A stretch of 63,400 nucleotides of DNA, the filler included, from Anaerolineae bacterium (GTDB lineage: Bacteria; Chloroflexota; Anaerolineae; Epilineales; Epilineaceae): assembly GCA_029262755.1 (NCBI GenBank). It is 9 parts of 9 records of this genome, joined end to end, with 100 filler letters (N's around TTAATTAATTAA, not from the genome) between each part and the next. Parts side by side here need not be neighbours in the genome. Positions count along the whole stretch, not along the records: positions 9,239 to 33,993 come from JAJCYU010000210.1; 8 more parts are not named here. One strand, given 5' to 3'. Position 1 is the first letter of the stretch. Each line of letters begins with the position of its first letter. Below are positions 24,001-33,000 of this stretch, in pieces. A program made the position numbers.

Positions 24001-27000
24001 GCGATCCGCCTCGATAGTACGCCGCCATCGTGCGGTCATGGCACGGTCACGGCGCCTTCGCGAAGCCGATTCATCGCCGTGACGCGCGATACCCAGCCGG
24101 CCCAATCACTCCAGCCAAACCGCCCCTACCGACCCCTGCCGGCTTCACCCTCGGCGGGCGGCGCCTATCATGGGAGGGAGTCGCGCGGGCGGCAAGGTGC
24201 TCGCGTTCGGAGGGCGGCCGCGTGACGGGCGCCCGCCCTTGTTGTGGGAGCGCCAGCCATGACCGAAGCGCCGCGTGCGATCGGCCTGTTCTCCACTCTG
24301 ACCAGCACCGGTTCGCGATCGATCGTGCTGCGCATGCTGCACGAGATCGGCGCCGGGCACCTGGGGCCCGTGCGGGTCGCGTTCGTGTTCGTCAACCGCG
24401 AGGCCGGCGAGTCGGCCGTGACCGACCAGAGCGTTGCGCTCGTCGCGGAAACCGGCGTGCCGGTGATCCGCGCGTCGGCCGTCGGCTTCGAGCGCGACGA
24501 GAGGCGCGCGGCGCGAGAAGCCGCGCGAGAAGGCGATGACATGGCGCTATGGGCGTGGCGTGACCGCTTTCACGAGCATGTTCGCACGCGGATACCCGAC
24601 ACGGACCTGGACCTGCTGCTGGGCGATATGTGGATCTGGGGGCCTGCCCAATGCGCCGCGCGCCGGGGCGTCAACCTGCATCCATCGCTGCCTACGGGGC
24701 CATTGGGCACGATGTGGTACGACGTCGTCTGGGATCTGATCGCCCAAGGAGCGCCGGAGTCGGGCGTGATGCTGCACCGCGTGACGCCGGACGTGGATCG
24801 AGGGCCGGTGGCCAGCTGGTGCCGGTATTCTCTGCGCACGCCGGAACTCGATGCACTGTGGGCCACCCTGCCGGCCGATCCGGCCGAACGGTCGGCGCTC
24901 ATCGCAGAGCAACGGGCGCTGCGCCGGGACAGCGAGCATCCGCTCTTCCACGCCGTTCGCGCGGCCGGCTTCGCGCGCGAGACGCCGCTCATGCTCGAGA
25001 CCGTGCGCGCGGTGGCGGAGGGTCGATTGCGCCTGGCGGACGGCCGTGTGCTGGACGGCGGGGATCGACCCTTGGACGGCGGGCTCGACCTCAGCGGAGC
25101 GGTCGAAAGGGCGGTTGAGGCGGGGCCGTAGATTGCGTGCGTGGTCGATCTCAAGCCGGCGACACAGCCGACCGGAGTCTTGCCCTCGCCCGCTGGTGAG
25201 GCTCGGCGGCGCCATGTACAATCGCGGCTCGACTGCGTGGGCCGCAGAGCGGGGAGCAGCCGCTCGGTCCATCCCCCATCGTCCGCCCGCGGGAGAGCCG
25301 CATGTCCGAAGCCCCAAAGCTGCGCGTCCTGGTCATCGGCCGTGGTGGTCGCGAGCACGCCCTTGCGTGGGCCATCGCGCGATCGCCGCAGGTCGAAACG
25401 GTGTACGTCGCACCGGGCAACGGTGGGACGGCCGGCGAAGACAAGGTGGAGAATGTCCCGCTGACCGAGAACGACCTGGAGGGTCTCGCGTCGTTCGCGA
25501 AGCAGCGCAAGGTCGGGCTGACGATCGTCGGGCCGGAGGATGCGCTGGCCAAGGGGGTCGTGGACCACTTCCACGCACATGACCTACCGGTCTTCGGTCC
25601 CACGCGCGACGCAGCGCGGCTCGAGACGAGCAAGATCTGGTCACGAGAATTCATGGCGCGCCACGGCATCCCGCATCCGGCCTTCGAGGTTTGTCACGAC
25701 GTGGAGGCGGCACGGGCGGCGGTCCTCGAGTTGGAGGGGCACTGTGTGGTGAAGTGTGACGGCCTCGCGGCCGGCAAAGGCGTCGCGGTTTGTGAAGAGG
25801 TCGAGGAGGCACTGACCGCTGTCGACGACATGATGGTCAAGCGCATCTTTGGCGACGCGGGATCCCAGTTGCTCGTCGAGGAGCGGCGCGACGGCGTGGA
25901 GCTTTCCGTGATGGCTCTATGTGACGGGACGGAGTACGTGTTGCTACCGCCGAGCCAGGACCACAAGCGGCTCCTGGAACGCGATCGCGGTCCGAACACC
26001 GGCGGGATGGGTGCCTACGCGCCGGCTCCGCTCGGCACGCCGAAAATGCTCGATGCGGTTCGCCAACAGGTGATCGAGCCGACCCTGGCCGGCATGCGCG
26101 CCGAGGGCACCCCCTTCGTCGGCTGCCTGTACGTCGGGTTGATGGTGGACGAACGCGGCATCACCGTCATCGAGTACAACGCGCGCTTCGGCGATCCAGA
26201 AACGCAGGTGCAGCTACCCCTCGTCGCATCCGATCTCGCCGCCGTGCTGCTCGCCGCGACCCAAGGGCGCGTGGCCACGCAGCCCATTTCGTTCATCGAG
26301 GACGCAACGGCCGTTTGCATCGTGCTCGCCGCGCGCGGCTACCCATTCAGCCCACAACGCGGCTTCGTCATCGACGGGTTGGCGACGGCGGAGTCGCGAC
26401 CGGGCATCAAGGTGTTCCATGCTGGAACGAAGCGCGACGACGTCCAGATCAAGAGCAGCGGTGGACGCGTGCTCAACGTCGTGTGCGTCCGTAACGGCTT
26501 GCAGCCGGCCGTCACCGGCGCGTACAGCGCGATCGGTGCGGCCGGCGTTCATTTCGAGGGCATGGCATACCGGACGGATATCGCCTTCCGTGCGCTTTCC
26601 GCCCCCACGCGCTAGGTAGATCGATCATGTCCCGGAAGCCCATCGTTGCGACCCTCGGCAGTCACTCGGCGCTGCAGATTCTAAAAGGCGCTGCCGACGA
26701 GGGTCTGTCCAACACCGTGATCGCGACGCGCGGCCGCGACGCACTCTACCGCCGCTACCCCTTCGTCGACGAGGTCATGGCCATCGACGGCTACGACCGC
26801 TTCGGCGCGCTCGAGCCGGAGCTGAAAGCACGCGGCGCGGTGCTCGTGCCACACGGATCCTTCGTGGCCTACCTCGGCGAGACGCTCAACCAGACCATGG
26901 ACGTCGGCTACTACGGCAGCCGCAACGTGCTGCGTTGGGAGGCCGATCGCGCCTTGCAGCGCGAGTGGCTGGAAGCCGCAGACATCCCGATGCCGGCCGA

Positions 27001-30000: not shown

Positions 30001-33000
30001 GGCGACGTCGACGGCCAGCTGACGCTCATCGACGAGATCCACACCACGGACTCCTCGCGTTGGTGGCTGGCCGACACCTACCCGGACCGCTTCGCCGCCG
30101 GCGAAAGCCCGGACACCTTCGACAAAGAATTCCTGCGCCAGTGGTACGCCGACCAAGGCTACCGCGGCGACGGCGACCCGCCCCTGCTCCCCCGCGAGCT
30201 CGCCGAGCGCATGAGCCGCATGTACATCGACGCCTACCAGCGAATCACGGGCGATACCTTCGTGCCCGATGAAGCGCCGCCGGCCGAGCGGATCACGGGA
30301 CGGCTCCGGGGCGCGGGGATCATCGAATGAGACGACTAGACACCGCGCGGATCCAGGTTCACCTCAGCGTGTGGTGGGGGCTTTCGCTCTTCATGACGGG
30401 CTGTGCGATTGGGATCCTGCTCGCCGGTACATTTCCACAGAGCACGGGCCTGCTCTTCTTCGGGCTCATGCTCGGATCCGTGCTCTTGATGGCATTCCAC
30501 GTGCGCGCCCGCATGCTCGCCGAAGACGGAGTCACCGGTGAGTGAGTCCGCGCTGCGTTCCGACCCCGCCGACACCGGCCTCACCTACGCCGACACTGGT
30601 GTCGACTACGACGCGATCGACCCGGCCAAGATCATGGCGCAGAAGGCCGCCGCGCTCACCGCCGGCCAACTGTCGCGCTTCGGCCTGCACGAGGTGCCCG
30701 CCAGCCGCGGCGAGAGCGCCTACGTGTGGGAAGAGCGCGACGCCTACCGCGCTTTCGTGGTCGAGGGTCTTGGCACCAAGAGCCTCGTTGCCGACGCCTC
30801 GCGCGCATTCACGGGCCGCTCGCACTACGACGCCCTCGCCCAAGACACGGTCGCGATGATCGTCAACGACGTGATCGTCGTCGGCGCCGCACCGCAGGTC
30901 GTCAACGCCTACTGGGCCGTGGGCGATTCCCATTGGTTCGACGACCGCGAACGCGCCCGCGACCTCGTCGACGGCTGGGCGGCCGCATGCGAGCTGGCCG
31001 GCGCCACGTGGGGCGGCGGCGAGACCCCCGCTCTCAAGGGCATCATCGAACCGGGCACCATCGACCTTGGCGGCGCCTGCGTCGGCGTCGTGGACCCCAA
31101 AGAACGGCTGGTCCTCGGCGACCGCCTCGTTGCGGGCGACCACATCGTCCTGATCGAAGCCAGCGGCATCCACGCCAACGGCCTCACCCTCGCCCGCCAC
31201 CTCGCCGATCAACTGCCCAAGGGCTACGCCACCGACATCGGCAACGGCACGAGCTACGGCGAAGCCCTGCTCGCTCCGACCCCAATCTACGCCTCAATCC
31301 TGGCCGAAGTCCTCGACACGGGCGCCGACGTCCACTACCTGGTCAACGTCACCGGCCACGGCTGGCGCAAGCTCATGCGCGCCCACCGCGCCCTACGCTA
31401 CCGCATGCACAGCGCCGTCCCCGTCCCCCCTGTGCTCGACTTCATCGTCCGCCAAGGCGACATGAGCCCCGACGAAGCCTACGCCACGCTCAACATGGGC
31501 GCCGGCTTCGCCTTCTACGTCCCCGAAGTCCACGTCGACACCGTTATCTCCGCCGCCCAGCGCAAGGGCCTAGGCGCCTGGAGCGCGGGCGTCGTCGAAG
31601 AGGGCGAGCGCGAGGTGGTGGTGGAACCGCTGGGCCTGCGGTATGCGGGCGAGCGGTTGGGGGTGCGGTAGGGCTGCAGACTCGCTCCGGAACTTCGATA
31701 GCCTCAATTTGGGTGGCTGTGTATGCTCCCGGAATGAGAATATTCACGCAACGCGTCCGCGGCTTCACACGGTCCCTCGCCGACTTCTCCCGCAACTTGC
31801 TTCCCGGTCGCCTTCTGCGTACCACGTCGCAGCGCTCCGTCCGTAAGCAGCTCAACCGCACCTACGCGACCCTCGACTCGACGTTGGACGATGGCTTCAC
31901 GCGGGCCCAAGCCGAAGCCTTGCAAGACGAGAGCTGGTAGTCCCTAGCGATCCCTACTCCCCACGCACCGCACGCGGCAAGTAGATCGCGAGTTCCACGG
32001 GCACTGCCGTCGCTGTCGCCACCACCGTCGCAACCACCGTCACAGTCGCGCTCGGCGTACCGGTCGCCCCCACCGTCGGCGTCGCCTCGCTAGTCGACGT
32101 CGCCGTCACCGCCCGCGTCGGCGCCACCGTAGGCGTCACTGCCGTGCTCGTCGCGGTCGCCGTGCTGGTTGGCGTCGCCGTCCGCGTGGGTCGCGGCGTC
32201 GGTGGCGCCGGCGGGTCGTAGAGGCCGGCCGTCACGAGCGCGGCGAAGATCTGTTGCCGGTGCTGCGGGTTGTCGCCGAGGTCGCTCGTCGCGGGCCAGA
32301 AGGGCACGTCGGCCTCGCGCGTCGAGGCGATGCCGATGTAGTCGCCGATGAAGCCCGTCACGAAACCTTGGCCGTCCGTGCTCACGATCGGCATGTTGAC
32401 CGACCAGTCGAAGGCCGCTCCGCCTACCCGCAGGTTGTTCGTCCACGTCGCGCCCACGTCGTAGCTACGGCTCATGTAGGCCTCCAGGCAGAAGTTCTCC
32501 CGCCCCACGTTCGCGTCGTCCACCCACTCCGCATCCGGGCACGCCAATCTCCGATCCAGCCACACGAGCGCGACGCGGCCTCCGGGCGCCACCGAAAGCT
32601 GCGGCTGAAGCTGATCGACCCCGTTACTCACCGGATCGTCGTTCATGCGCCGCGGCTCGGACCATGTCGCGCCGCCGTCGCCCGATTGGCTCAAGTAGAT
32701 GTCGCTATCGCCGTTGCGCAGATCGGCCCACGCGGCATAGAGCGTCCCGTCCAACGGGCTCGCGACGAAGGCGGGCAAGCTGGCCGGCGCGCGGAAGTTC
32801 CGATCGTCCAACCCATTCGGCAGGAAGAAGGGGATCGGCCGGATCGCGGCGACCGTCGTCGGGGCGCCGAAACTCGCACCGCCGTCGTCCGAGCGAGCCA
32901 TCCGCAGCGAGCCCTGCGGACCGCCGAAGATGTCGCGGGCATAGATCACGTAGACCGTGCCATCCGGCCCCACCGCCGGGATCGAACCCTGCACGGCGCC

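Follow-up and report, generated by a model that had tools for sequence, protein, structure and literature searches.

The purine operon studied here raises the question of how a bacterial family without purH carries AICAR towards IMP, and what part its two neighbouring purP genes play. Our window, the whole 63,400-nucleotide stretch of DNA that was analysed, is made up of several contigs with runs of N between them, and the operon lies on one of them (C210, window positions 9239-33993), in a MAG of 428 contigs that is 84% complete. It is a genuine purine operon of a bacterium, with all genes on the + strand in the order purN-like, purD, purP-A, purP-B, purE, purC, purM; coordinates below are those of the window. 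The genome-wide survey's note had described a purD-purP-purP-purE-purC operon at 25302-30330, and ORFs and Pfam matches bear out all five genes, although the list was incomplete, the purN-like gene upstream and purM downstream belonging to it as well. purD (GAR synthetase, 25302-26615) scores 498 bits with TIGR00877 against a cut-off of 288 and matches Pfam GARS_N, GARS_A and GARS_C; purE (28835-29362), of the N5-CAIR mutase type, scores 183.9 bits with TIGR01162 (cut-off 149.6) and matches AIRC; and purC (SAICAR synthetase, 29368-30330) scores 414.4 bits with NF009251 (cut-off 371) and matches SAICAR_synt. The somewhat divergent purM (AIR synthetase, 30538-31671) matches Pfam AIRS and AIRS_C and E. 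coli PurM (tblastn, 2e-29), scores 177.5 bits with TIGR00878, under the cut-off of 236, and is found after purC in 4 of 11 family loci. Between purD and purE stand purP-A (26627-27697) and purP-B (27694-28824), the purP-B ATG overlapping the purP-A stop codon as ATGA; purD, purP-A and purP-B sit side by side in 10 of the 11 family loci.

The operon's first gene (24259-25131) is a divergent PurN-like ORF whose direct profile matches are weak (TIGR00639 PurN, E=1.8e-4, 21.1 bits versus a cut-off of 150.1; Pfam Formyl_trans_N, E=0.012, 15.9 bits versus 26.1). A profile built from seven sequences has PurN structures as its best matches (3AUF, E=4e-4), and its AlphaFold model (pLDDT 90.3) matches 3TQR, 3AUF and 1CDE at E=2e-12 to 2e-10 with a target TM of about 0.7. 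Two motifs, VNLHPSLP and EVDEGPVV, line up with the part of PurN that carries its Asn-x-His and Asp residues, which we take to be catalytic. We found the gene in all 17 family genomes (E<=1e-127) and, in 6 of the 11 family loci examined, immediately before purD; elsewhere in the order it is matched in 3 of 18 genomes, always weakly (E 7e-11 to 1e-4), with two of these matches coinciding with PF00551 hits in short frames, 211 and 251 aa long. The model and motifs point to a formyltransferase fold, with a likely role as GAR formyltransferase. In the rest of the genome, E. coli queries recovered purF, purD, purL, purQ, purM and purE, together with guaA, guaB, glyA, folD and folC and a weak purB-like match (27.5% identity, E=2.6e-14), and purC was recovered by HMM; an E. 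coli query for the formate-producing PurU found no match in this genome.

Both purP genes carry Pfam DUF1246 and DUF1297 (4.1e-35 and 3e-66 in purP-A, 1.8e-34 and 2.5e-57 in purP-B), and their best solved matches, over nearly the full length, are 2R84 (P. furiosus PF1517, 1.4e-95) for purP-A and 2R7K (5.1e-67) for purP-B, reproducing the domains and structural relatives of the earlier note. Its statement that both genes fall below the curated cut-offs of the NCBIfam equivalogs NF009778-NF009783 (formate--phosphoribosylaminoimidazolecarboxamide ligase) was also confirmed, with 355.8 bits versus 580 for purP-A and 264.8 versus 556 for purP-B. Its reading of the two as FAICAR synthetase genes did not survive inspection of residues and loops. 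In M. jannaschii numbering, used here for all PurP residues, His27 and Arg314 contact the formyl group and Ser94 and Ser266 the AICAR phosphate (PMC3261824), and our alignment retains all four in both proteins. Asn258 together with a (K/R)GG(K/R)G P-loop marks cluster Ia/b proteins (PurP I/II), and a His at the same position with a glycine-poor loop extended by two residues marks cluster II proteins (PurP III). In purP-A residue 258 is Asn and the Gly-rich loop reads GAAGGSG, in which the family's AGGSG keeps the glycines and lacks both basic residues; purP-B has His258 and the loop EAERGFERAFF, two residues longer. Within one alignment, Asn258 occupies 75 of 75 A-type rows and His258 81 of 81 B-type rows. 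The loop tracks the paralogue (Gly-rich in A-types, a conserved E..R.[FY]ER in B-types), and H27 and R314 persist in A-types and B-types alike, which PMC3261824 also describes for the archaeal clusters. By these diagnostic residues purP-B classifies as a cluster II/PurP III paralogue and purP-A, with its atypical loop, most probably as a cluster Ib/PurP II paralogue; the two are not duplicates. PurP-B shows no decay: mean column identity is higher among B-types (61%, 73 sequences) than among A-types (44%, 68 sequences).

Genome searches support the loss of purH, PurO and PurJ by the whole family. The purH model PF01808 (AICARFT_IMPCHas) finds no match in our genome or in any of the 17 family genomes, while purH is present in 15 of 18 sister-family genomes of the order; a control search with the same model gave matches in 12 of 14 named genomes. 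The PurO domain (IMP_cyclohyd, PF07826) was found in none of the 17 family genomes at E<=0.1 and in none of five at E<=1. The MGS domain yields 15 matches in 14 of the 17 genomes, ten of them in frames of at least 1100 aa; three of the five shorter frames were inspected and proved to be two CarB fragments and one 146-aa frame cut by a contig end, the two outside that inspection being frames of 758 aa (G003) and 664 aa (G016). No stand-alone IMP cyclohydrolase domain was found in the family genomes, and the survey's claim that the family has neither purH, PurO nor such a domain thus stands. Its family count for DUF1297, and with it PurP, was reproduced as well (16 of 17 genomes), and none of the 18 other genomes of the order has PurP; our genome has two DUF1297 matches, and the single miss (G007) is 65% complete. 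The family belongs to the Chloroflexota; database labels of relatives include Anaerolineae, Caldilineae and Ardenticatenales, and one MAG of the family is labelled Candidatus Epilinea brevis.

The passages of a 2019 survey that treat purP place it only in Archaea (PMC6486802), and the earlier note's claim of archaeal exclusivity agrees with that literature but not with the sequence data, as 40 of the best 80 related loci are bacterial. PurP pairs are in fact widespread in bacterial MAGs and already carry that name at NCBI. Both PurP genes lie on one strand in 71 of the best 80 related loci, in the order A then B in 38 of 38 bacterial loci and B then A in 27 of 33 archaeal ones. A full purH accompanies the pair in 4 of 4 genomes of another Chloroflexota family (f16), 5 of 5 Eremiobacterota and 8 of 18 small-genome MAGs; since the pair coexists with purH in these lineages, its presence alone is no sign that purH is dispensable, and the cyclohydrolase in such genomes may come from PurH. 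The proposed swap of purP for purH therefore holds across the host family and fails as a universal rule, other PurP-pair bacteria having kept purH. In A-type and B-type trees alike, the family groups with the same CPR-like bacteria of small genome size (FastTree support 86 and 99, respectively; IQ-TREE SH-aLRT 93 for the A-type bacterial clade and 96 for the B-type split), and in both the host family forms its own long-stemmed clade with support of 100. The nearest relatives are thus CPR-like bacteria and not an archaeal clade, at odds with the "archaeal-type" affinity given in the survey's note. Certain related MAGs carry questionable database labels, with genomes of 0.9-2.0 Mb assigned to Gammaproteobacteria.

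In our reading, which we consider probable, the family has lost purH and carries instead a heterologous PurP pair that entered it as one unit by horizontal transfer. The pair most likely takes AICAR towards IMP without folate, with formate and ATP. PurP-A is a probable ATP-grasp formate ligase because it has the Gly-rich ATP loop and Asn258. PurP-B would act with PurP-A as a hetero-oligomer partner, as the enzyme of the next step, or as both: it retains its contacts to AICAR and the formyl group yet has His258 and a remodelled, charged loop. Structure prediction for a PurP-A/PurP-B complex gave a median score of 0.41 against 0.01 for the best control (three runs at 0.16, 0.41 and 0.48, with at least 4% of contacts agreeing and a pLDDT of at least 86 for the partner). 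Of 157 solved complexes, 116 pass the mark applied, as do 2 of 215 mismatched pairs; at scores of 0.60 or below, it is passed by only 18 of the 157 solved complexes and by both mismatches. This hints faintly at physical pairing of the predicted partners, and the score may only mirror likeness to solved PurP homo-hexamers.

The closest known counterpart is the archaeal PurP II and PurP III pair (P. furiosus PF1517/PF0421; Sulfolobales, Thaumarchaeota), with the same two paralogue types and diagnostic residues. In archaea the two always co-occur, and, as in the bacterial pair, their genes are adjacent, lie in purine gene clusters and are often found in genomes without PurH, PurO or a PurH2-type cyclohydrolase. 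The pair described here differs in its bacterial host and bacterial nearest relatives, in its A-B order and in a family PurP-A without either basic loop residue. M. jannaschii PurP (MJ0136, PurP I) shares the fold, the Pfam domains and the formyl and AICAR contacts, and is, according to passages of PMC6486802, the only PurP with demonstrated formate- and ATP-dependent FAICAR synthetase activity; it is a single gene accompanied by PurO, whereas the present family has two paralogues and lacks PurO. The bifunctional AICAR transformylase/IMP cyclohydrolase PurH covers both pathway steps in question here, but has an unrelated fold and depends on 10-formyl-tetrahydrofolate. For lineages with both purH and the pair, E. 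coli PurN and PurT offer a model of folate- and formate-dependent enzymes for one step (PMC3261824), although they serve the GAR step and not the AICAR step, and PurT is a single ATP-grasp protein.

The strongest alternative, to which we give somewhat less than an even chance, is that the pair makes FAICAR only and a separate, unrelated enzyme cyclises it to IMP, as assumed for Crenarchaeota. In five bacterial loci purH directly follows purP-B, and Archaeoglobi hold PurP-like proteins of both clusters (cluster II AF0256) beside a PurH2-type cyclohydrolase (2011 review, PMC3261824); both arrangements suggest that the pair needs a cyclohydrolase partner. A 2019 paper showed PurH2-type cyclohydrolase activity for A. 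fulgidus AF1811, saw no spontaneous cyclisation of FAICAR over 30 min at 60 C, and still mentions an "unidentified crenarchaeal IMP cyclohydrolase" (PMC6797443). Against this, no candidate IMP cyclohydrolase was found in or next to the operon. The sole conserved uncharacterised neighbour is a protein of about 160 aa that looks helical from its sequence and is restricted to the host family. Moreover, three pair-bearing groups lack a known cyclohydrolase: the host family; small-genome MAGs, of which 10 of 18 lack purH and 5 of those 10 also a stand-alone MGS domain (PurO lay outside that search); and archaeal taxa, 37 of 61 according to Table 1 of PMC6486802. A doubtful but possible solution, which we rate below a separate enzyme, is that PurP-B is itself the IMP cyclohydrolase of organisms with PurP but without PurH, PurO and PurJ. 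Its retained AICAR and formyl contacts, lost Gly-rich ATP loop, invariant His in place of the carboxamide-contacting Asn258, and stronger conservation than in PurP-A would fit a different chemistry on the same nucleotide. A point against our main reading is that, when assayed singly, neither the cluster Ib nor the cluster II protein of P. furiosus is reported to have had FAICAR synthetase activity in vitro (Zhang 2008, as cited in PMC3261824 and PMC6486802).

If PurP-B is indeed the IMP cyclohydrolase, the A/B pair would be a self-contained, folate-independent module, mobile between domains and able to replace purH outright. Pair-bearing bacteria without purH (the host family and the 10 small-genome MAGs) would then be natural complementation experiments. 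In any case the family offers a mesophilic bacterial system for testing the role of a poorly understood pair.

We regard as improbable that one PurP paralogue formylates GAR in the manner of PurT. The family has no canonical PurN or PurT: Formyl_trans_N finds only an Fmt-like gene in G000, G001, G002, G004 and G009, and no genome among the 35 of the order satisfies the PurT model. Both enzymes are likewise absent from seven PurP-bearing archaeal species (PMC3261824, section 8). However, the PurN-fold gene with its Asn/His/Asp motifs, present throughout the family and often upstream of purD, offers a candidate for that step, the pair shares its locus with purN-like genes in three loci of other lineages, and archaea with PurT still hold both paralogues (PMC3261824).

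A role for PurP-B in place of PurK (N5-CAIR synthetase) is very unlikely. purK is missing (the PurK model fails in five of five family genomes, with a top score of 31.9 bits versus a cut-off of 318), and purP-B adjoins a purE of the mutase type, which normally requires PurK. Nevertheless, purP-A, purP-B and a purK homologue occur together in five related bacterial operons, six family genomes have PurK-like matches yet both PurP genes, and PurP-B retains its AICAR-phosphate and formyl contact residues.

That the pair is a binning or assembly artefact, an archaeal or CPR contig in a Chloroflexota bin, is scarcely credible despite the 428-contig MAG source and the doubtful "Gammaproteobacteria" labels on related MAGs, because the operon recurs in 16 of 17 family genomes, on contigs of 433 kb and 674 kb in some, its GC content of 68-70% is in line with the flanking sequence, and the family forms its own fully supported, long-stemmed clade in both trees.

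The operon lies on contig C210 (window 9239-33993), one of several contigs that N runs join in the window. All five genes of the purD-purP-purP-purE-purC run placed at 25302-30330 by the genome-wide survey's note were borne out by Pfam and NCBIfam models, on the plus strand: purD (25302-26615), purP-A (26627-27697), purP-B (27694-28824), purE (28835-29362, named as the mutase type) and purC (29368-30330). The operon extends beyond the limits set in that note, with purM downstream of purC (30538-31671, plus strand) and a 290-aa conserved purN-like ORF preceding purD as its first gene (24259-25131, plus strand). 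Both purP genes carry DUF1246 and DUF1297 and match a solved PurP structure over nearly their full length (purP-A with 2R84, E=1.4e-95; purP-B with 2R7K, E=5.1e-67), with scores well under the NCBIfam PurP equivalog cut-offs, and the ATG of purP-B overlaps the stop codon of purP-A as ATGA. When contig C210 was scanned against Rfam (E≤0.1), a sub-threshold sRNA was the sole match and there was no riboswitch.

The two purP genes had been counted as two FAICAR synthetase genes; their residue 258 (M. jannaschii numbering) and a loop instead identify them as different paralogues, PurP II and PurP III. In its passages on PurP, a 2011 review on how archaea synthesise purines (PMC3261824) gives cluster Ia/b an Asn258 and a (K/R)GG(K/R)G loop, and cluster II a His258 and a loop longer by two residues with few glycines, with His27 and Arg314 invariant in both clusters. 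The corresponding section of a 2019 survey (PMC6486802) names the types PurP II and PurP III and reports that they co-occur without exception in 61 archaeal taxa. Aligned to 2R7K, purP-A (cluster Ib, PurP II) has Asn258 and the loop GAAGGSG and purP-B (cluster II, PurP III) has His258 and the loop EAERGFERAFF, and both keep His27, Ser94, Ser266 and Arg314. Across aligned PurP sequences of the 80 best related loci and further relatives, residue 258 is Asn in 75/75 A-type rows and His in 81/81 B-type rows, and the loop motif of the B-type is conserved in Bacteria and Archaea alike. Mean column identity is higher for B-type sequences (61%, n=73) than for A-type sequences (44%, n=68), indicating that purP-B is no decaying copy. 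In three loci of f16, another Chloroflexota family, a third PurP copy adjoins the A-type gene (L020, L026 and L027); its His27 is replaced by Asn and its Arg314 by Ser or Ala, leaving it without both formyl-contact residues.

Within the family, the proposed replacement of purH by the PurP pair stands. DUF1297 occurs in 16/17 family genomes, including all six of high quality, compared to 0/18 in the rest of the order (the one family genome lacking it is 65% complete), while the purH domain PF01808 shows the reverse pattern, with 0/17 in the family versus 15/18 in the rest of the order. PurO was likewise found in 0/17 family genomes. The MGS-like domain gave 15 matches across 14/17 family genomes, ten of them within CarB-sized frames; three of the five shorter frames were examined and proved to be two CarB fragments and one unassigned 146-aa frame cut by a contig end. 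E. coli protein queries against the window's genome recovered purF, purD, purL, purQ, purM, purE, guaA, guaB, glyA, folD and folC, together with a weak purB-like match, and purC was recovered via HMM; the same queries returned no match for purH, purN, purT or purK. That a bacterial family lost purH and kept both purP genes lends support to the view that the pair is able to carry the end of the pathway.

The other half of that interpretation, which restricted PurP to Archaea, does not hold. PMC6486802, in its account of PurP distribution, reports zero bacterial PurP among 1,403 genomes surveyed. Scanning species-representative genomes with the B-type alignment yielded at least 597 relatives, and the best 80 of these divide equally between bacterial and archaeal loci (40 each). 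The bacterial loci among these best 80 come from this Chloroflexota family (9), Eremiobacterota or Vulcanimicrobiota (7), Dependentiae (1) and 23 MAGs labelled Daviesbacteria, Curtissbacteria, Parcubacteria, Patescibacteria, 'bacterium' or 'Gammaproteobacteria'. Genome sizes of 0.6-2.0 Mb (17/23, those with a reported size) and co-clustering suggest that these 23 MAGs are CPR-like. MAGs of 0.9-2.0 Mb named 'uncultured Gammaproteobacteria' contribute L062, L063, L066, L070, L073-L075 and other loci, and their labels look doubtful because in PurP genes and operon layout these MAGs group with Daviesbacteria and Curtissbacteria. Proteins of such MAGs already bear the NCBI name formate--phosphoribosylaminoimidazolecarboxamide ligase, and the literature searched, at the level of listings and abstracts with supplements excluded, yielded no description of bacterial PurP. 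A phylum sample of Chloroflexota contained DUF1297 in 10/401 genomes, from three families. What is at stake is the use of PurP as an archaeal signature, given pairs in Chloroflexota, Eremiobacterota, Dependentiae and many small-genome CPR-like MAGs.

Outside the family, the pair does not always replace purH: a full purH accompanies it in f16 (4/4 genomes), Eremiobacterota (5/5) and 8/18 small-genome MAGs (17 CPR-like and the Dependentiae MAG). PF01808 had no match in the remaining 10/18 MAGs, whose completeness is not known, and purH is the gene immediately after purP-B in five loci. MGS matches in purH-less small-genome MAGs were considered as stand-alone cyclohydrolases and rejected, those of G443 and G451 being argininosuccinate synthase-MGS fusions and that of G440 a contig-end CarB fragment, a reading that leaves out the second matches of G438 and G444. 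Fusions of argininosuccinate synthase with a C-terminal MGS-like domain are seen in small-genome MAGs at L133 (446-2068) and L135 (476-2092). Genes lying between the two purP genes were also considered: purA separates them in L077 and L098, and in L076 (4512-7972) and other Eremiobacterota loci purP-A and purP-B are about 3.5 kb apart, the gap in L076 holding subunits I and II of cytochrome bd oxidase, plus a 372-aa ORF without a Pfam match. None of these offers a nameable cyclohydrolase candidate. A separate arrangement occurs in L022 (G278:C72:5672-8384), from a 1.7-Mb Chloroflexota genome, where a single A-type purP lies between genes for a stand-alone IMP cyclohydrolase (191 aa, with an MGS domain and positions 1-58 of the PurH model) and AICAR transformylase, looking as if purH had been split by a purP insertion.

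A- and B-types separate at support 100 in a FastTree phylogeny of 160 rows, and the family forms a long-stemmed clade in each half. In the B-type half, FastTree groups the family with CPR-like sequences at support 99, and in IQ-TREE a split at SH-aLRT 96 divides CPR-like and family sequences from all archaea, Eremiobacterota, f16 and Dependentiae. In the A-type half, a bacterial clade at 93 leaves out a single Dependentiae row, and a clade at 98 unites both with six archaeal loci from Micrarchaeota, Woesearchaeota and one genome labelled Methanosarcinales. The A-type gene precedes the B-type gene in 38/38 bacterial loci with both genes and follows it in 27/33 archaeal loci (both among the best 80 of at least 597 relatives), and the six archaeal loci with A then B are those that cluster with bacteria in the A-type tree. 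The congruent placements of purP-A and purP-B argue that the pair moved together, and by these trees the immediate donor of the family's pair looks bacterial. When each half is rooted with the other, the roots disagree on the direction of transfer between domains, the B-type root falling inside the CPR-like group and the A-type root placing archaea at the base.

The family operon is a bacterial occurrence of the already known archaeal PurP system. Strict pairing, co-transfer, translational coupling and the reported inactivity of archaeal cluster Ib and cluster II proteins alone, mentioned second-hand in the relevant passages of PMC3261824 and PMC6486802, argue for a joint function. The simplest model would be a two-protein AICAR formyltransferase dependent on formate and ATP, in agreement with the PurP hetero-hexamers speculated on in the PurP section of PMC6486802. 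A complex prediction for PurP-A and PurP-B scored 0.41 versus 0.01 for the best control, weak support for the modelled complex; a pass at this score is wrong more often than right unless pairing is likely beforehand, and the score could also stem from resemblance to the solved homo-hexamers of PurP. FAICAR without enzyme did not cyclise in an assay (PMC6797443). PurP-B is a candidate IMP cyclohydrolase, a role already speculated on in PMC3261824, since it retains the residues that contact the nucleotide and the formyl group while having His for the carboxamide-contacting Asn and no Gly-rich loop. Against this candidate, many genomes hold PurH or PurJ along with the pair. PurP-B as an analogue of PurT or PurK was weighed and rejected. 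The real value of the family operon is as a tractable test case for the PurP pair, since proteins from these non-thermophile-looking, high-GC bacteria ought to lend themselves more readily to work in an E. coli purH mutant than did those of hyperthermophiles used to date.

The purine pathway of the family is remodelled beyond purH, with a very divergent PurN-like gene and with PurK missing in most members. In each of five family genomes Pfam Formyl_trans_N finds a single gene, which is Fmt-like; three others have a second, partial formyltransferase match, and the PurT model is unmet in 35/35 genomes of the order. For the ORF at 24259-25131, sequence models give weak PurN matches, a 7-sequence profile ranks PurN structures first, and the AlphaFold model (pLDDT 90.3) matches PurN structures to E=2e-12, followed by formyl-tetrahydrofolate deformylases. 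This ORF is present in 17/17 family genomes, while elsewhere in the order its profile gives three weak matches only. It is a candidate that plausibly fills the GAR formyltransferase gap, and its activity could be either formyl transfer to GAR or hydrolysis of formyl-tetrahydrofolate to formate. The PurK model is unmet in 5/5 family genomes (G000, the window's own, and G001, G002, G004 and G008; best score 31.9 bits, cut-off 318), and PurK-like matches occur in six others. The purE of the operon is nevertheless named as N5-CAIR mutase type. A conserved protein, some 160 aa long and encoded at approximately 18293-18775 on the minus strand, has no Pfam or NCBIfam match and, judged on its sequence, looks helical; it was not found among non-family PurP loci, and in four family loci (L042, L044, L045 and L049) its gene and the purN-like gene are transcribed divergently. 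On a different contig of the window, GC content falls to 0.39 at 56001-58000, compared to about 0.68 elsewhere.
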